52,453 nt of DNA from positions 1 through 52,453 of the IMG/VR virus record IMGVR_UViG_3300042546_000489, one strand, 5' to 3'. Shown here piece after piece: positions 18,319-48,455 of this stretch. The position numbers and the translations under genes are program-made. Each line of letters begins with the position of its first letter. Position 1 is the stretch's first letter. Below the pieces are notes generated by a model. It saw only the letters and a program-made list of their open reading frames with translations, was not told the origin of the DNA and ran no database searches. This stretch comes from a virus. Lineage: Duplodnaviria > Caudoviricetes.

Positions 18319-19176
18319 TCAGTTGATTCCCGGTAGCACCTCGCAAGGCGGCGGATCGCGATCAGTCAGGCGGCGATCGAGATACCAGCGGTGTGTGATT
18401 CGCGGGCTGGAGTGATCTAGCAACTTGACGGCGTCGCCCCCGAGGGCGGCGTAGTGCGATGCCGCAGAGCGTCGCAACTGATGAAAGCCGCACTTGCGGC
18501 CCGTGGGCAATCCGGCACGACGCACGACATCGCGATACTTCGTCCAGAGGTACTCTCGCGAGCCAGGCCACTCGAACACGCGGTTTTTGCCGCACGCTCT
18601 GGCGACGAGGTCATACGTCACCGGAGTGAGCCGGTACGCACGGTCTCGCTTGCCGCCCTTCCGATACTCGGCTCGCACGCTGAGAAACGGCGAGGCCAAG
18701 TCCTCTGGCCGACATGCCAGCACGGCTCCGATACGCTCGGCTGTTTCCCACAGCACGTTCACGAGCGCGGCGTACCAGATGCCCGCTGGCACCGTGCCGA
18801 CGCGTCCAGGTGTCGCCACGGCGGCACGCACGAGGGACCGCAACTGATCGACGCTCCACGCCTCTGGAATGCGGTCTGGCAGCGGAGCGGGCGGCACGCA
18901 CGGCCGGTCCCGAACGAATCCGCGATCAGCGGCGAACCGCCAGAGCGCGATGAGCTGCGTGCGTTCCTTCTCGGCCGTGTATGGACTGCGCGTGCTGCCA
19001 CGGTGCTCAAGAAACCGGCTGATCGTCAGATCGGTCAGGTCGTCAATCGTCGGCTCGTGCCGCAGCCACTTCCAGAACGAGCGAATCGTGCATCCGTACA
19101 GGCGGCTCGTGTTTGCTGATCGTCCGCGCAGCCGCAGCGGACGGTAGTAGTCATCGAACAGATTCTGCAGCGTCAT
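18319..19176 (-). CDS. int: Tyrosine integrase
   Basis: Catalytic set ETAER, RKGGK, FHQLRR, LLDHSS, HRWY; GAGGAGG RBS before ATG 19176. Confidence 0.9.
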   Translation of the reverse strand: MTLQNLFDDYYRPLRLRGRSANTSRLYGCTIRSFWKWLRHEPTIDDLTDLTISRFLEHRGSTRSPYTAEKERTQLIALWRFAADRGFVRDRPCVPPAPLPDRIPEAWSVDQLRSLVRAAVATPGRVGTVPAGIWYAALVNVLWETAERIGAVLACRPEDLASPFLSVRAEYRKGGKRDRAYRLTPVTYDLVARACGKNRVFEWPGSREYLWTKYRDVVRRAGLPTGRKCGFHQLRRSAASHYAALGGDAVKLLDHSSPRITHRWYLDRRLTDRDPPPCEVLPGIN

Positions 19177-19267
19177 CGCGTGCCTCCTCGTAGGGGATAG
19201 GTCACGCATCCAAGCGTCGCAAGTCGGCTCCTGCCTGTAGGGGTTGAAACGATTAGTCGGCCGTCCG

Positions 19268-19285
19268 CGAATCCTGTCCCCGCCA
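19268..19285 (+). other. Candidate attP core matching the 3' end of an initiator tRNA-Met
   Basis: CGAATCCTGTCCCCGCCA resembles T-loop, T-stem and acceptor stem; lies between int and an Xis-like gene. Confidence 0.6.
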
Positions 19286-19287
19286 TT

Positions 19288-19323
19288 GCACGCCCGCCAG
19301 TCCGAGGGGATTGGCGGGCGTGC
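19288..19323 (+). terminator. Hairpin immediately downstream of the attP core
   Basis: GCACGCCCGCCAGTCC / GGATTGGCGGGCGTGC stem. Confidence 0.55.
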
Positions 19324-19356
19324 CTTGCTTCGATCGAAACTACAGGATCGCGAACA

Positions 19357-19575
19357 ATGGTCAAGCAACCGGACTACATTTCGGTTCCGAAGGCTGCAGA
19401 AATCCTCGGATGCTCGGACGTTTGGGTCATTCGGATGATCGAACGCGGCGAGCTCGAAGGCTTCCGGCTCTCTGGCCGCGCGTGGGCGGTGAGCCGCGCG
19501 TCAGTGGCGAAAAACCACGAGGAGTACCTCAAGCGAGACCCCACCCTCTCGGGAAGAAAGCGGTCACGCGCGTGA
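19357..19575 (+). CDS. Excisionase/MerR-like HTH DNA-binding protein
   Basis: ISVPKAAEILGCS...MIERGELEG...AWAV. Confidence 0.8.
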   Translation: MVKQPDYISVPKAAEILGCSDVWVIRMIERGELEGFRLSGRAWAVSRASVAKNHEEYLKRDPTLSGRKRSRA

Positions 19576-31792: not shown

Positions 31793-32539
31793 ATGAGCGT
31801 CGCTACGCTGGCACGAAAGCCGCAGTGGCACGATGAGCCTCTCGGCCCGTCGGAGAATCCATTCTCGACCAACAAGGTCACCGGGCATTCGCTGAACTTC
31901 CCGATCATCGGGACGTGCACGCCAACGCTCGTGTGTTCCGATACGTGCTACTTCGCCCGTGGCCCCGCGACTTGGACGGCGAGCTTGGCAAAGCAGCATC
32001 GGCTCTTGAACTCATTGCGTGCCGATCCGCAGAGGCTCGCCGGTCGCATCGCTCATTGGTCAACGCGGCTGCGGCTCACGTTCATTCGCTGGTGCGGCGG
32101 CGGCGACCTCGTAGCTGAGACGCCAGCCTGCATCGACGCCGTAGCCTTGATGCTTCCAGGCGTGCCGCAGTGGGTCGTCACGCGCAAGCCTGAGATCGCT
32201 TCAACGATTCAGCCTCGCGACAACGTCTACGTTCACTTTTCGGTAGATCGGGCATCGTGGGCAAGGCTGGAAGAGTTTCGCGTGTTGGCTCCTCGCGGCC
32301 TGAAGTGGTTCTGGTCGTACCAGTGCGATCGAGGAGAGTCTCCAAGCGACGACGTTGCTCCTGTTGTGTTTCGGCATGGCTATGACCTTGACGGATCGCA
32401 GCCGATTGCGAGAGACTGCCCGCTCAATCTGAGCGAGTCGATTGTTCGGGTATGTGAATCATGCCGTCGCTGCTTCAACGGCGACGCTGTTCAAGGGGCA
32501 ACGGAATGCCACGGGAATCCAACATCGTCGCCGCGATAG
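31793..32539 (+). CDS. Gp88-like Fe-S / radical-SAM-related protein
   Basis: TCTPTLVCSDTCY, FIRWCGGGD, VVTRK, FSVD, C-terminal CP...CESCRRC. Confidence 0.7.
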   Translation: MSVATLARKPQWHDEPLGPSENPFSTNKVTGHSLNFPIIGTCTPTLVCSDTCYFARGPATWTASLAKQHRLLNSLRADPQRLAGRIAHWSTRLRLTFIRWCGGGDLVAETPACIDAVALMLPGVPQWVVTRKPEIASTIQPRDNVYVHFSVDRASWARLEEFRVLAPRGLKWFWSYQCDRGESPSDDVAPVVFRHGYDLDGSQPIARDCPLNLSESIVRVCESCRRCFNGDAVQGATECHGNPTSSPR

Positions 32540-32781
32540 TTCGGGAAGCCAAACAAGCAGGGTGGTGGGTCATGAAGATCCACGGCGGTCCGCATCAGTT
32601 GGCTGGCGTCCCCGACCTGCTCTGTCTTCGACGCGGCAAGGCGGTGTTCCTGGAAGTGAAGCAGCCGGGCAAGAAAGCCACGCCGCTGCAGGTCGCACGC
32701 ATGAGGGAGATCGAGACGCAGGGAGGCGCACCATGCAAGGTCGTTACGTGTCGCGAGGAGGCGATAGCCGCTCTGTCCTAG
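32506..32781 (+). CDS. VRR-NUC domain nuclease
   Basis: ESNI, GVPDLL, FLEVK, TPLQ. Confidence 0.88.
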   Translation: MPRESNIVAAIVREAKQAGWWVMKIHGGPHQLAGVPDLLCLRRGKAVFLEVKQPGKKATPLQVARMREIETQGGAPCKVVTCREEAIAALS

Positions 32782-32974
32782 GCTTCAAGATTCCTGTCGA
32801 TCGCGAGCCACCGGCTCCGACGCCGCTGGATGAAGTCATGTCAGTCATGTTTTTGGAAAGCGCACCGTGGGTGCAATCAAGAATCAAAAAACTGCGGTTG
32901 TCTGGCAGGCTCGTGCGCGGCTGGACACCGCCGACAGTGCCGGACCCGTGCGCCGCTTCGCCCGTGGAGGATTT

Positions 32975-33118
32975 ATGAGTGCACCGCTTCTGCTGTTCGT
33001 CTCTCTGCTTTACTGGGCTGTCGCGATCGAGCAGTGGTGGAAGGGCTCGCCAGCAGGGTTCGTCGTGTGGGCGAGCTACGGCACGGCGAACTGGGGGCTG
33101 ATGTGGATGACGAGGTGA
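32975..33118 (+). CDS. Small membrane protein
   Basis: GGAGG RBS; two hydrophobic segments. Confidence 0.6.
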   Translation: MSAPLLLFVSLLYWAVAIEQWWKGSPAGFVVWASYGTANWGLMWMTR

Positions 33119-33127
33119 GCAGCACAG

Positions 33128-33189
33128 CGATCCCGGCGGGCAGGCACCGGCCCGATAATCCGGCACGCCGAACCCGCCGGGATCGTTTT
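33128..33189 (+). terminator. Hairpin with TTTT just before the attC-like site
   Basis: CGATCCCGGCGGG / CCCGCCGGGATCG. Confidence 0.5.
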
Positions 33190-33281
33190 GAGAACACGGA
33201 AGATCAACGGCGGCCACCGGAGGACTCAACCATGACACATGGCGTAGCAGGGCCGTCCGTTGCATCGCTTGGTTCTCCGAC
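33190..33281 (-). mobile_element. Integron attC-like recombination site
   Basis: R box GAGAAC/GTTCTC, unpaired spacer, L box with extrahelical T33256 and C33263. Confidence 0.7.
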
Positions 33282-33477
33282 TATCGCGTACCGCGTGGTG
33301 GCGGCGAGCAGCGCAAAGGCACTGGAGACGGAGGTAGCACTGTTGATCGCACAGGGATACTTGCCGATAGGTGGCGTCTCAGTGGCAGTGCTGCACAGGG
33401 AGTGGGAAAACCAACTCAAGGGCTACACCGAGAGCGACGCCGACTGGGAGTATTCGCAGGCCATGCTGCGGCAGTGA
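33232..33477 (+). CDS. DUF1737-like protein (cassette gene)
   Basis: YRVV...LETEV...QGYLPIGGVS...YSQAM; GGAGGA RBS. Confidence 0.7.
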   Translation: MTHGVAGPSVASLGSPTIAYRVVAASSAKALETEVALLIAQGYLPIGGVSVAVLHREWENQLKGYTESDADWEYSQAMLRQ

Positions 33478-33542
33478 CGGTCGGAGAACTTGTGTTTCTA
33501 CTGTCCGTATGTTACGCCGCTTCCGTGTATCACGCCTCCGCT

Positions 33543-33575
33543 AACTGCAAGGCCACTAGCCTCGCGTGCCATGAT
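33543..33575 (+). promoter_or_regulatory. Candidate late promoter AACTGCAAGG-N17-CATGAT
   Basis: Repeated motif; 5 nt before the protease ATG. Confidence 0.5.
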
Positions 33576-33580
33576 CGGGC

Positions 33581-34372
33581 ATGCGACTCGTGGCGACTCT
33601 CATCGCCGTGTCGGCCCTCGCGGCATCCGCCGCCACGATTGACGAGTCGAAGGGCGACGGCCGCTACCTCGACTACGGTGCGACGTTCTCTGGCTACGTC
33701 GTGCGGGTCGTCGGCAACAACGCCGAAGGCGTGCCGCTCGCTGGTTCTGGCACGCTCATCTCGCCGCACTGGGTGCTCACGGCGGCACACGTGCCGCACG
33801 AGATGACGGCGGTGACCGTCGTTATCGGCGGCGAGCGTCTCGCGTGCGACCGCGTCGTGCGGCATCCCGAGTGGGAGGGCATCCACGGGTGGCACGACAT
33901 CGCCCTGGTGCGGCTCGGGCGGCATCGGCACGCCGACGTGTATCCACGGCTCGCTGACGGCACCGAGCGGCTCGGGAGCGTCGCCGCCGCCGCTGGGTAC
34001 GGGATGACAGGCACGCTCACACGCGGGCTCACGGGCGGCGACCAGCGGCTGCGGGCGGGGACGTGCGTCCTCGGGTCGATCGAGCACGGCGTGTATGTCT
34101 GCCCGATTCGCAGGACGCCCGACGCTGGGCCGCTCCCGGCGTGCATCGCACCTGGCGACTCGGGTGGCCCGCTCTGGGCGACGGCGATCGACGGCTCGAC
34201 GAGGATTGTGGGCGTGAACTCGTACGTGGCCCGCGTCGGCGGGAAGACGAAGTACGTCCTCGGCGAGGAGTCGGGTCACACGCGCGTGGTGCTCTACCTC
34301 GATTGGATTCGCAGCGTGACCGGCGAACTTGACTCGCCATGCACGATGCCTGAATGCCAACCGCCACGCTGA
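33581..34372 (+). CDS. Secreted trypsin-like (S1) serine protease
   Basis: Signal peptide; triad LTAAH, HDIAL, GDSGGP. Confidence 0.9.
   Translation: MRLVATLIAVSALAASAATIDESKGDGRYLDYGATFSGYVVRVVGNNAEGVPLAGSGTLISPHWVLTAAHVPHEMTAVTVVIGGERLACDRVVRHPEWEGIHGWHDIALVRLGRHRHADVYPRLADGTERLGSVAAAAGYGMTGTLTRGLTGGDQRLRAGTCVLGSIEHGVYVCPIRRTPDAGPLPACIAPGDSGGPLWATAIDGSTRIVGVNSYVARVGGKTKYVLGEESGHTRVVLYLDWIRSVTGELDSPCTMPECQPPR
34329..34348 (+). promoter_or_regulatory. TTGAC-N8-CACGATG motif
   Basis: Repeated motif; ATG follows 5 nt later. Confidence 0.45.
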
Positions 34373-34575
34373 GATTCCGCCTGCCCGAGGACGAGGGCGA
34401 TTTCCGCGACTGCGTCGAAGGCTCGCGGGCGAAGTCGATCGTCATCCTGCTCGATGACCACCTCGCCACCGAGATCAAGGGCGGCGAGCTCGGCCACGAT
34501 GTCGAGGTGGCGTACCAGGAGCTCCGCGAGTGGCTGCGGAGTCAGTGTGCGGAGCACGGGCTCGATCTGCTGTGA
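34354..34575 (+). CDS. Hypothetical protein
   Basis: ATLRFRLPED start; GTGA overlap with the next gene. Confidence 0.65.
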   Translation: MPTATLRFRLPEDEGDFRDCVEGSRAKSIVILLDDHLATEIKGGELGHDVEVAYQELREWLRSQCAEHGLDLL

Positions 34576-34970
34576 CCATCACGCTGTCCATCCCCGGCGA
34601 TCCGGTGCCGCAACCGCGCCCGCGAGTGTCAACGCAGGGCGGGTTCGCTCGCGCGTACGTACCGAAGAGCCATCCAGTTCACGCCTACCGACAGGCGATC
34701 GCATTAGCGGCAAGCGTCGCCGGGCTCCGCGAGCAGGAGAAACCAGTCAGCGTCGTCATCGACGCGGTGTTCGCACGACCGAAATCTCACATGAACAAGG
34801 CAGGCGTGAAGCCGACCGCACCGGCACTGCCGCGACCCGACGTAGACAACCTGGGCAAGGCGGTCCTCGACGCATTGCAGGACGTGATGGGAGACGACAC
34901 GCACGTCGCACGGCTCGTCGTCGAGAAATCGTGGGGCACCGAAGGACGCACGACGGTGCGGATCACGTGA
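34572..34970 (+). CDS. rusA: RusA-like Holliday junction resolvase
   Basis: PVPQPRPR, RPDVDNLGKAVLDAL, DDTHV. Confidence 0.9.
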   Translation: MTITLSIPGDPVPQPRPRVSTQGGFARAYVPKSHPVHAYRQAIALAASVAGLREQEKPVSVVIDAVFARPKSHMNKAGVKPTAPALPRPDVDNLGKAVLDALQDVMGDDTHVARLVVEKSWGTEGRTTVRIT

Positions 34971-37501: not shown

Positions 37502-38358
37502 CGACCTACACCATCACCGCCTCCGACATCGAGGCTCACCGCCCCGACGTGCTGCTCCCGCCCGACGAGGAGTTCGTGGAGCAGTACGCCGAAGCCGTGC
37601 GTGTCGGGCGAGAGGTCGCAGCCGATCGCACGGCCTCGCTGGTTGCCATCTGCCGCAATGCCATGCCCTGGCTGCCGCAGACGCTCGGGCTCGTAGAGGA
37701 GACGGGCGCGATGTTCCGCTCGTGGTCGGCGTACATCTTCGAGAACGACTCGTCCGACGAGACGAAGGACGCGCTCGCGGCGTGGGCCGATGGCACGCAG
37801 AGGCAAGTGTCGCTGAACATCAACCACCGGCCGCACCTCTCGCATACGATCGACACCGAGCGGACGGTCGCACTCGCGGAGTACCGCACGCAGTGCCAGC
37901 GGTGGGTGCGGCACGGCGAGCCGTGCGACTATGTCGTCGTGTTCGACTCCGATGCCTGGGGCGGCTGGAGCGTTGACGGCGTCGCGACGAGCGTGGGACA
38001 TATCGAGGCGGCTCGCGGGGCGTCGTGCATGGCGAGCTATTCGTGGGCGGAGCACAACGGGTACGCGATCCACTACGACGCATTCGCGGCACGGTGGAAT
38101 CACTGGCGGCGTCGCGATCAAACGTGGTTCCATCACTGGCACCCGCCTGTCGGCTCGCTGCCGCTGCGATTCAACAGCGCCTTCGGGCAACTGGCGCTCT
38201 ACCGGAGGGACGCCTACCTCGCCATGCGGTACAGCGGCGAGGACTGCGAGCACGTGTGTGCTCATCGCACGATGCCGGGGCGGTTGTATCTCAACCCGTC
38301 GAGCCGGTGCGTCTCCTACTGGACACCACGCGATGCCGGGCAACACGGCGACAATTGA
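37498..38358 (+). CDS. Glycosyltransferase, CAP59/GT69-like
   Basis: ICRN, FENDSSDET, LAEYR, FDSD, SAFGQLALY, CEHV. Confidence 0.68.
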   Translation: MTTYTITASDIEAHRPDVLLPPDEEFVEQYAEAVRVGREVAADRTASLVAICRNAMPWLPQTLGLVEETGAMFRSWSAYIFENDSSDETKDALAAWADGTQRQVSLNINHRPHLSHTIDTERTVALAEYRTQCQRWVRHGEPCDYVVVFDSDAWGGWSVDGVATSVGHIEAARGASCMASYSWAEHNGYAIHYDAFAARWNHWRRRDQTWFHHWHPPVGSLPLRFNSAFGQLALYRRDAYLAMRYSGEDCEHVCAHRTMPGRLYLNPSSRCVSYWTPRDAGQHGDN

Positions 38359-38728
38359 CGCCGCGATCCTGCGCGTGCAGTGGGAATCGCAGATGCCGAT
38401 GGCGGAAATCTGCACCCACTGGACGATTGCGAAAGATCAATTGATACGCCTGCGCGACGTGTGGCATCTGCCGAAACGTCACGACCGCTCGCTCCGCTAC
38501 AAGCCGCCCCGCGACCCCGGCCCCGATGACGAGGAGGAACGGGCGAGCCGCGAGAGCCTGTCGCTGGCTCCGCAGATCGCCGCCCGTGCGACGTGCGTGC
38601 AGGCGCTCTGGACCGAGCAGCAACGCCGCGATCGCACGATGGCGACCACGCCGAGCGGAGGGATGCTGCGGTGGATCAACGCGAAGGACATCGTCCAGCG
38701 GTTCGCCAATGACGAACTGCAAGGCTAG
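38333..38728 (+). CDS. Hypothetical protein, possible HTH
   Basis: MAEICTHWTIAKDQLIRL...LPKR. Confidence 0.5.
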   Translation: MPGNTATIDAAILRVQWESQMPMAEICTHWTIAKDQLIRLRDVWHLPKRHDRSLRYKPPRDPGPDDEEERASRESLSLAPQIAARATCVQALWTEQQRRDRTMATTPSGGMLRWINAKDIVQRFANDELQG

Positions 38729-46575: not shown

Positions 46576-47502
46576 ATGGACATATCAACCAAGCGAATCC
46601 TCGTCACGGGCGGTGCCGGGTTTCTCGGCAAGGCAGTCTGCCGCGTGCTGCACAGTCGCGGATGCCGTCACGTGATCGTGCCTCGCCGGGTCGCGTGCGA
46701 CCTGACCAGCGAGGAGGACACGATCGACCTGTTTGACGACCACCGGCCCGAAGTCGTTCTGCACCTCGCGGCCGAAGTCGGCGGCATCGGGGCGAACATG
46801 GCGACGCCGGGAAGGTTTACCTACGCGAACCTCGCGATGGGGCTGCACGTGATCGAGCAGTGCCGACGGTTCGAGGTCGAGAAGGTCGTCGTCGTCGGCA
46901 CGGTGTGCAGCTACCCGCTCGATCCGCCCGTGCCGTTCGTCGAATCGGACTTGTGGAACGGCTACCCCGAACCAACGAACGCCGGATACGGCGTGGCGAA
47001 GCGTGCGGTCTACGAACTACTCAAGCAGTACAACAAGCAATATTCGCTCCCCGGTGCCGTTGTGATTCCGACAAACCTGTACGGCCCGCACGACAACTTC
47101 GACCCGGTGTCTTCGCATGTGATCCCGGCGATGATCCGGCGATTCTGCCGCACCGATCCGGTGACGCTCTGGGGGACGGGATGTGCGTCGCGAGAGTTCC
47201 TCCACGTGGACGACGCTGCCGAAGGCATCGTGCGAGCAGCGGAGAAGGTGACGACGCCCGATCCGATCAATCTCGGTGGTGGCGGCGAGGTGCAGATGAG
47301 GAAGCTCGCCGAGATGATCGCGGGCGAGTGCGGCTACATGGGCACGATCCGCTGGGACTCCTCGAAGCCAGACGGACAGCCGAGGCGTGCGGTCGATGCG
47401 ACCCGAGCCCGCGAGATTCTCGGGTGGACGCCGAGAGTCAGCCTACAGAACGGCATCGCCGAGACGGTCTCGTGGTGGAGGGATCAATGCGTGTCGCTCT
47501 GA
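46576..47502 (+). CDS. fcl: GDP-L-fucose synthase
   Basis: [54 protein letters not shown]. Confidence 0.93.
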
Positions 47503-48455
47503 TCACCGGCATCACCGGGCAGGACGGCTCCTATCTCGCTGAGCTCCTGCTCGCGAAGGGCTATATCGTCCACGGCATCGTGCGGCGGTCGAGCACGTTC
47601 GGCACGCAACGAATCGAGCACATCTTCCACCGGCTCAACCTGCACTACGGCGACGTGACCGACGGCGGTGCGATGGCAAGGCTCGTCGCTGAGATCGAGC
47701 CAGACGAGCTCTACAACCTCGCGGCGCAGAGCCACGTGCGGGTGTCGTTCGACCAGCCCGCGTACACGGCGGAAGCGGTCGGGCTCGGAGCGCTCAACGT
47801 CCTCGAAGCAGCCCGCGTCGTGCCGGGATGTCGTGTCTATCAAGCGTCCTCCTCCGAGATGTACGGGCAGGTCGCCGAGACACCCCAGCGGGAGACGACG
47901 CCGTTTCGTCCACGATCACCGTACGGCGTGGCGAAGGTCTACGCTCACTGGATCACGGTGAACTACCGCGAGAGCTACGGGATGCACGCATCGTGCGGCA
48001 TCCTGTTCAATCACGAGAGCCCGAGGCGCGGCGAGACGTTCGTGACCCGCAAGATCACGCGGGCGGCGGCACGCATCGCCAGCGGCATCCACGAGACGCT
48101 GTACCTGGGCAACCTCGACGCCCGGCGGGATTGGGGCCACGCAGCCGACTACGTCGAGGCCATGTGGCTCATGCTGCAACAGGACGAGCCCGACGACTAC
48201 GTCATCGCCACGGGCGAGACGCACAGCGTGCGGGAGTTCTGCGAGCGGGCGTTTGCCCACGTGGGGCTCGACTACCGCGACCACGTCGAGATCGACCCAC
48301 GCTACTACCGACCGGCTGAGGTGGACCTGCTCCAGGGCGACGCGAGCAAGGCACGCAGGCAGTTGGGCTGGGTGCCGAGCGTGACGTTCGAGGGGCTCGT
48401 GGCGGGCATGATGGACGCGGAACTGCAAGCGTTACGGGGACGCGTGGTAGCGTGA
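47487..48455 (+). CDS. gmd: GDP-mannose 4,6-dehydratase
   Basis: [52 protein letters not shown]. Confidence 0.96.
48421..48453 (+). promoter_or_regulatory. Candidate late promoter AACTGCAAGC-N17-TAGCGT
   Basis: Repeated motif; 6 nt before the HNH ATG. Confidence 0.5.

Follow-up and report, generated by a model that had tools for sequence, protein, structure and literature searches.

Integrons are bacterial gene-capture devices, and the host integron recombinase is usually linked to stress responses. For their attC sites, the available text of Nivina et al. 2016 describes a bottom strand with the AAC triplet in its 5′ arm and extrahelical bases in the arm opposite. The same text gives spacers of 5–6 nt, a first extrahelical base at position 16 (usually G) and a T at 23/24, a 6-bp stem between these two bases, a length of 57–141 nt and R boxes of the form RYYYAAC / GTTRRRY. 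Double-stranded cassette entry sites, attI and attG, at which crossover occurs next to GTT/AAC, are described in the accessible part of a preprint (Loot et al. preprint 10.1101/2022.09.11.507474).

Phage-borne attC sites are already published, a few having been demonstrated in recent work. In the portion of the paper available, integron parts are reported in 21 of 10,705 genomes of phage isolates, including 17 integrase-less attC clusters, and five of the six phage attCs tested were recombined by IntI1, so that phage attC sites can be functional (Qi et al. 2023, Front Microbiol 14:1091391). The locus and the family described below resemble these phages in carrying attC without IntI and in the presence of DNA methyltransferase cassettes (their five; C5, N6/N4, Dam and Mom enzymes among 150 cassette proteins here). 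In contrast, the usual cassette orientation is typical of the phages of Qi et al. 2023, and that portion of the paper reports no reversed polarity with a start codon in the loop, no conserved phage docking site and no planctomycete phages. The element family studied here also fills at least 120 virus-contig stretches, compared with their 21 phages. In the literature surveyed, most of it judged by abstract and with supplements outside the survey, we found no report of reversed cassettes with an attC-loop start or of an integrase-less docking platform in planctomycete phages.

The window, i.e. the whole stretch of DNA analysed, is an entire virus record (52,453 bases, completeness rating 100%), with nearly all genes on the + strand. 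Genes for the large terminase, portal, major head protein, tape measure, helicases and primase are present and, together with a tyrosine integrase, identify a temperate tailed phage, whose hosts are in all likelihood Planctomycetota (Pirellulales-type hosts). No blastn match to positions 32400–34400 was found among 50,697 records of isolated phages. Two genes for different junction-resolving nucleases, a VRR-NUC-type endonuclease (32461–32781) and a RusA-like resolvase (34530–34970), bracket the locus under study. Elsewhere in the window (46860–48455) lies a gene for a nucleotide-sugar epimerase (phrog_540, E 2e-87), which suggests a phage gene for surface-sugar modification. The features of the locus, and the integrase, are as follows.

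32975–33118, + strand: small membrane-protein gene (47 aa), left backbone; conserved in 14 of the 19 relatives compared
33123–33190, + strand: long hairpin followed by TTTT, with 18-nt arms 89% complementary and a 32-nt loop; part of the left flank, not of the cassette
33190–33277, + strand: attC-type recombination site, read on the bottom (recombinogenic) strand; assigned by covariance model, geometry and covariation
33195–33488, + strand: putative cassette unit of 294 bp, attC and gene, bounded by two R′ boxes
33232–33477, + strand: cassette gene, an open reading frame of 81 aa starting in the attC loop
33484–33489, + strand: second R′ half-site, the cassette/docking junction; homology of relatives starts at 33480–33486
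33490–33536, + strand: attI-like docking site, a conserved core right after AAC with two direct repeats of about 15 nt
33504–33518 and 33522–33536, + strand: the docking direct repeats
33581–34372, + strand: trypsin-like serine protease gene, right backbone (PF00089, E 2.5e-13)
18319–19368, − strand: the phage's own tyrosine integrase (PF00589, 27.9 bits; phrog_1 integrase, 102 bits)

We consider it likely that 33195–33488 is an integron-type cassette at an integrase-less platform, where a host IntI would exchange the folded + strand at AAC. The absence of an IntI-like gene from the phage, already remarked on in an initial annotation made from the sequence, was borne out: TIGR02249 gave no match at E ≤ 1 in the window, and 32 related virus records, of which 15 have a completeness of 90% or more, likewise yielded no IntI. 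The integrase at 18319–19368 lies 14 kb from the cassette and has only weak Xer-type matches (≤35 bits); by its profile matches it is of the ordinary phage type and not an integron integrase. Tyrosine recombinases are encoded in the window and, above the family cut-off, in two of five related records; none was found in two others, which are 31% and 57% complete. The window holds no serine recombinase at E ≤ 1. A complete integron has intI next to attI and array; with no intI, the locus is classed not as an integron but as a platform lacking the integrase (single attC / CALIN type).

The attC-type site itself, 88 nt in length, can be divided as follows.

33190–33195, + strand: R′ box, with the AAC triplet at 33193–33195 and a putative cleavage point between 33194 and 33195
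33196–33201, + strand: unpaired spacer, 6 nt
33202–33215, + strand: 5′ stem arm, pairing with 33251–33266
33216–33250, + strand: variable loop, 35 nt
33251–33266, + strand: 3′ stem arm, with extrahelical T33256 and C33263
33267–33271, + strand: unpaired spacer, 5 nt
33272–33277, + strand: R′′ box, forming 6 of 6 pairs with 33190–33195

The attC geometry that the initial annotation had claimed for 33190–33277 was recovered in every listed feature, each at the position given. The inverted R′ and R′′ boxes carry AAC and GTT, and these pairs are kept in 20–21 of 21 variants; the spacers are unpaired and of 6 and 5 nt; C33263 and T33256 lie opposite the AAC arm at positions 16 and 23, separated by 6 bp, the proximal base being a C where G is usual. 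Structure is kept while sequence varies, and the length falls within 57–141 nt. Of the full 7-nt consensus RYYYAAC / GTTRRRY only the AAC/GTT triplets match, with purines at Y positions of R′ and C or T at R positions of R′′. These departures are also found in integrase-adjacent host sites and thus read as a taxon-specific variant.

Folded alone as DNA, the + strand of the site reached −17.8 kcal/mol (z −1.7; 15 of 200 shuffles as good) and the opposite strand a z of −2.0 (6 of 200), so that the hairpin alone is only marginally more stable than expected by chance. A chance hairpin could be ruled out on comparative evidence, single-sequence folding alone being insufficient. Over 21 variants the 20 modelled pairs were paired in 93.5% of cases, with compensatory changes in 9 of them and in 8 of the 14 L-stem pairs. 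The covariation score was reached by none of 500 shuffles, and controls in which the partners had been slid paired at 29–49%.

Two covariance models were used. Model R2 was built from 35 chromosomal sites in two IntI-adjacent arrays of a complete Pirellulaceae genome; since these had been collected with the phage-trained model R1, they may be the most phage-like of the chromosomal sites. As a surrogate for the IntegronFinder attC model, with which the initial annotation had proposed to check the site, R2 matched the window element over its full length and on the + strand only (61.6 bits, E 7.7e-15), the next match in the window being at 12.2 bits. With R1 the element scored 95.6 bits, as high as any family member, and was itself a training member of that model. 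All 20 modelled pairs are intact in it, and both scans found one attC-type element in the window. The pairing and covariation of the family, together with the R2 match, place the hairpin beyond chance, and by these sequence comparisons the window element and the attC sites of planctomycete chromosomal integrons are members of one site family. On the − strand at 38318–38383, a partial match to the attC model was also seen (17.8 bits, E 0.008); it is weak, has several broken pairs, and could be a relic or chance.

The first 26 nt of the element are found exactly in 12 other virus contigs. There, an element of about 86 nt precedes unrelated genes, including N6 and C5 DNA methyltransferases, with homology ending at the 3′ R box; this type-1 element is almost identical before more than eight unrelated genes. 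Related contigs contain arrays of variants with the same architecture and other stem sequences. A degenerate family pattern occurs in at least 120 stretches of uncultured virus contigs and in 37 stretches of bacterial genomes, nearly all Planctomycetota; R1 counted 287 copies in 89 virus loci and 157 in the 37 bacterial loci. The strand of the elements is uniform in 126 of 127 element-bearing virus loci, and their median start-to-start spacing is 402 bp.

The geometry of phage elements was examined with a scanner that allowed spacers of 5–7 and 4–6 nt, and the counts are conditional on the geometry it required: among 194 scanned elements the spacers were of 6 nt in all 194 and of 5 nt in 191, the distal extrahelical base was a T in 183 and the proximal one a C instead of G in 189, as it was in 20 of 21 host sites. 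Short forms of 46–60 nt, and forms without a start in the loop, retain the full geometry. Rfam contains no family matching the window region or the 8-element array in virus locus L010, the only hits being miRNA-model noise (E 0.5–1.6).

In the complete Pirellulaceae genome, two long one-strand arrays end 430–440 bp from integron integrases, whose TIGR02249 score is 405 bits (cut-off 265). IntI above the cut-off was found in four of the five array-bearing genomes examined. The sites of the window and of these chromosomal integrons share the order R′, 6-nt spacer, extrahelical bases at 16 and 23, variable loop, 5-nt spacer and R′′, and a putative crossover at AAC; arrays of the family lie on one strand, with a spacing of 0.25–0.9 kb. 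The two differ in that the chromosomal arrays adjoin intI and attI, with the top-strand gene ahead of attC, whereas the phage has no intI and places a bottom-strand gene behind attC, with the start codon inside the loop.

Some further features of host arrays were observed. An IS91-type transposase (Y2_Tnp and a zinc-binding domain) lies within an integron array on host chromosome G006 (L180, 13801–15897), and both G006 arrays contain further tyrosine-recombinase fragments scoring 113–117 bits with the IntI model. Unlike in G006, IntI on contig C19 of genome G009 (L033 / L172) appears opposite the model strand of its array, an ‘inverted integrase’ layout; the position of L033 within the contig is provisional.

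With AAC in the 5′ arm and the extrahelical bases in the arm facing it, the + strand of the window is by this rule the bottom strand. As this is also the coding strand, the attC stands in front of its gene and not behind it. The gene thus runs opposite to normal cassette polarity, as the initial annotation had proposed: in a canonical cassette a promoterless top-strand ORF is followed by attC, and here a bottom-strand ORF begins within the attC loop and leads away from the site. The intI gene of the host array is on the model strand and the cassette genes (cytochrome P460, Imm50, NADAR) are on the other, whereas in phage contigs the genes are on the model strand. Comparison of stop-free frames between elements was uninformative on orientation because both strands are often open in this G+C-rich DNA; gene orientation was therefore judged by the placement of start codons and by Pfam matches.

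A ribosome-binding site and ATG had been assigned to the attC loop, and the translation start (33219–33234, + strand) is indeed located there: GGAGGA at 33219–33224, a 7-nt gap and ATG at 33232–33234. The same layout, with an ORF of at least 50 aa extending past the element, was found in 205 of 271 phage elements compared with 1 of 21 in the host array; 201 of the 205 loop starts are ATG and 194 are in one frame. No sigma-70-type promoter or simple intrinsic terminator of the consensus types scanned was found in 32400–34000, and none of the 24 metagenome runs found to contain the stretch is listed as RNA.

The first 15–17 or so residues of the cassette protein are encoded by the attC loop and 3′ arm, residues 7–15 being read from the 3′ arm of the hairpin, in line with the proposal that an attC arm encodes the N-terminus. 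The N-terminal motif predicted on this basis for other phage proteins was recovered in 150 cassette proteins of other phage contigs, in which the predicted S, A, S, G and S positions each show conservation of 90% or more. Among the 150, families could be assigned to DUF551 (17), C5 methylase (5), N6/N4 methylase (4), Dam (2) and Mom (1); most have none.

Residues 1–17 of the window protein are predicted to be disordered (pLDDT 46–63 for residues 1–20), and residues 19–80 to form a compact beta-alpha-beta-beta domain (pLDDT at least 94 for 21–80). Only three homologues occur in a set of 5.8 billion proteins; two homologues, of 65 aa, are without the first 16 residues. From these shorter homologues and the predicted disorder, the attC-encoded N-terminal tag is an add-on. 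The designation ‘DUF1737-like’ holds as a weak likeness (PF08410, 17.8 bits, E 0.003) and fails as a family assignment, the score being below the 24-bit cut-off. No PHROGs or NCBIfam family was found for the protein, and the domain 19–80 matched no solved fold at E ≤ 0.001, the best TM-scores (0.4–0.5) being to small beta-alpha-beta-beta nucleic-acid-binding proteins.

The boundaries of the unit were examined in related loci. The 10-nt stretch at 33272–33281 is, as had been described, the exact inverse of 33480–33489, and no further exact copy occurs in the window. In virus locus L002, homology to the window extends from the first R box to the second, so that the cassette lies between two other attCs. 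Locus L003 carries the same cassette with the right boundary in common, and then diverges into a different flank. These boundaries define a unit of 294 bp, in agreement with the cassette of about that size first suggested for 33195–33488. In L184, the homology of the left backbone stops at 33195, the predicted crossover, and in L200 the same attC is followed by a different, methyltransferase-like gene.

The trypsin-like protein of the right backbone is encoded in 19 virus contigs or loci, in 15 of them at 93–97% identity. The right flank starts exactly after AAC in 13 of the 18 relatives with upstream sequence, and the docking stretch is absent in the other 5. To the left of the junction, where the initial annotation had suggested looking for other genes, 11 different sequences with 0–4 attCs were found in those relatives. 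By blastn, the right backbone starts at 33480–33486 of the window in 11 relatives. The gap between the two backbones ranges from about 10 nt (L195, nearly empty) to about 2.2 kb with four attCs (L196).

In the docking site, a short imperfect inverted repeat at the crossover is followed by the two direct repeats. As a marker of these repeats, the motif TCCGTNTAT has one match in the window against 0.46 expected, which is not significant alone. Among virus contigs, 35 distinct junctions were found in which the docking core follows a variable left side ending in AAC; as 22 of these belong to unrelated virus loci, the core is a general feature of these phages. It resembles attI and attG as an entry site, and differs from attI in having no adjoining integrase gene. 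It is also more conserved and more reused than required by the 3-nt GWT consensus given for attG in the accessible part of the preprint (Loot et al. preprint 10.1101/2022.09.11.507474). When compared by eye with the DNA that separates intI from the last cassette in two host genomes, it showed a short common core; the likeness to host attI regions is loose and suggestive only.

On the left side, no family was found for the 47-aa membrane protein. The left backbone occurs with or without the hairpin 33123–33190, which is found alone in L192 and L194. The consensus terminator scan did not call this hairpin, which could be a terminator or else an attC-like element in decay. R-box-like hexamers stand on either side of the hairpin in L186 and L188, where the spacers are shorter and extrahelical bases are lacking. 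In these two loci, at about 2860–2925 between the hairpin and the docking site, two R′ hexamers also lie about 45 nt apart with no gene; the pair may be what is left of a cassette that was excised or had no gene.

The stretch is present in 24 lake and freshwater metagenome runs, in all of them as assembled contigs, and four runs were compared with the window at 85% likeness. An empty site, which the initial annotation had suggested should be sought in relatives, is approached in the nearly empty L195 and was seen in contigs of two of the four runs, joining 33189 to 33515 through 32 letters. The 32 letters read as one R box and a variant docking core, and the contig comes from a relative; since its shorter matching side is only 23 letters, this is a weak observation. 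In other contigs the match to the window ends at 33189, where a different attC follows, or at 33276, where different genes follow. Over the attC the summed depth was 100–950, as against 7–30 over the gene body, which fits a repeat common to many phages.

From this, a mechanism can be proposed. The + strand would fold during lysogeny or replication, a host integron integrase would bind the folded site and exchange strands at the AAC of the R′ box, and the partner would be the double-stranded attI-like site 33490–33536 or another attC. Such exchange would insert, excise or swap cassettes. Because each cassette would bring its own translation start, it could be expressed wherever it has landed in the rightward phage transcript, the 3′ hairpin arm being translated as a disordered N-terminal tag. 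We infer from sequence comparison that the acting enzyme is a host IntI, and likewise that this copy is still active and that recombination takes place at the stages named.

The same observations could be explained otherwise. True recombination points might be served by another agent, either homologous recombination within the 86-nt repeats and docking sites (‘linker sequence’ mosaicism) or a phage recombinase such as that at 18319–19368. The near-identical type-1 elements before more than eight unrelated genes, with homology ending at the 3′ end (as also in L200), are what recombination inside a common repeat would leave, and tyrosine recombinases are encoded by the window and two of the five related records. 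However, the left sides at the 35 docking junctions have only AAC in common, too little for homologous exchange. The stems covary within an integrase-specific geometry that homology-driven exchange would not select. The phage integrase, moreover, is 14 kb away and not IntI-like, and two of the five related records yielded no tyrosine recombinase (at 31% and 57% completeness). We therefore regard another agent as unlikely. An ancestral single insertion, now a fixed gene with a decaying attC and with the variation at the locus due to other causes, is quite unlikely: the single element of the window and a cassette gene without assigned function would agree with such a fossil, but all 20 modelled pairs are intact and the R1 score is 95.6 bits (from a model that had the element in its training set). 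Relatives 93–97% identical in the neighbouring gene also carry other cassettes at the same junction, and lake runs show several alternative continuations at 33189 and 33276. Intact pairs, differing cassettes in close relatives and alternative continuations together point to recent turnover.

The structure might also act at the RNA level only, as a conserved 5′ leader whose loop exposes the ribosome-binding site and start codon, or to which a phage regulator or nuclease binds; the resemblance to attC would then be inherited or coincidental, and cassettes would move without it. This would account for the position of the start in 205 of 271 phage elements, 194 of them in one frame, and for a structure on the transcribed strand, and it agrees with the fact that the right kind of phage integrase was not found. 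Against it, the same family lies beside host IntI antisense to cassette genes, where a role in mRNA is unlikely; the 46–60-nt and start-less forms retain the full geometry; relatives break exactly at AAC; R boxes, spacers and extrahelical bases fit the needs of an integrase point by point; and Rfam has no match. We consider an exclusive RNA role very unlikely. A dual role, in recombination and in translation start, is instead part of the cassette explanation that we prefer.

Beyond the single locus, these phages could harbour a mirror-image parasitic integron, made of a docking site and cassette arrays with no integrase, using host IntI, a private cassette pool and a portable start module; we give this wider proposal an even chance. 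The pool would be private because phage genes lie on the strand opposite to that of host cassettes: phage cassettes would not be expressed from a host integron, nor host cassettes from a phage. Any gene body behind the attC loop would be expressed in any phage context, and phages could shuffle DNA-modification and other accessory genes at integron pace.

If the cassette interpretation is correct, a whole phage group uses the integron system without its enzyme and with the cassettes turned round, and a DNA recombination hairpin doubles as the start of a protein-coding message, a natural case of attC embedded in coding sequence. It would further explain in concrete terms how the well-known hypervariable ‘accessory gene’ regions of phages arise, and would offer a testable example of a host recombinase exploited by a virus. 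In such arrays, cassette genes will be mis-assigned by integron surveys that look for the gene upstream of attC.

Finally, genes just upstream of elements were inspected in several virus loci (L005, L006, L010, L011, L013, L014, L015, L189 and L197–L199). Many encode small proteins, with a common internal motif of about ‘LTDxEREAI’ and a C-terminus like ‘LLERLG’. The TGA stop of cassette genes of the ‘LTDxEREAI’ type overlaps the next R′ box.
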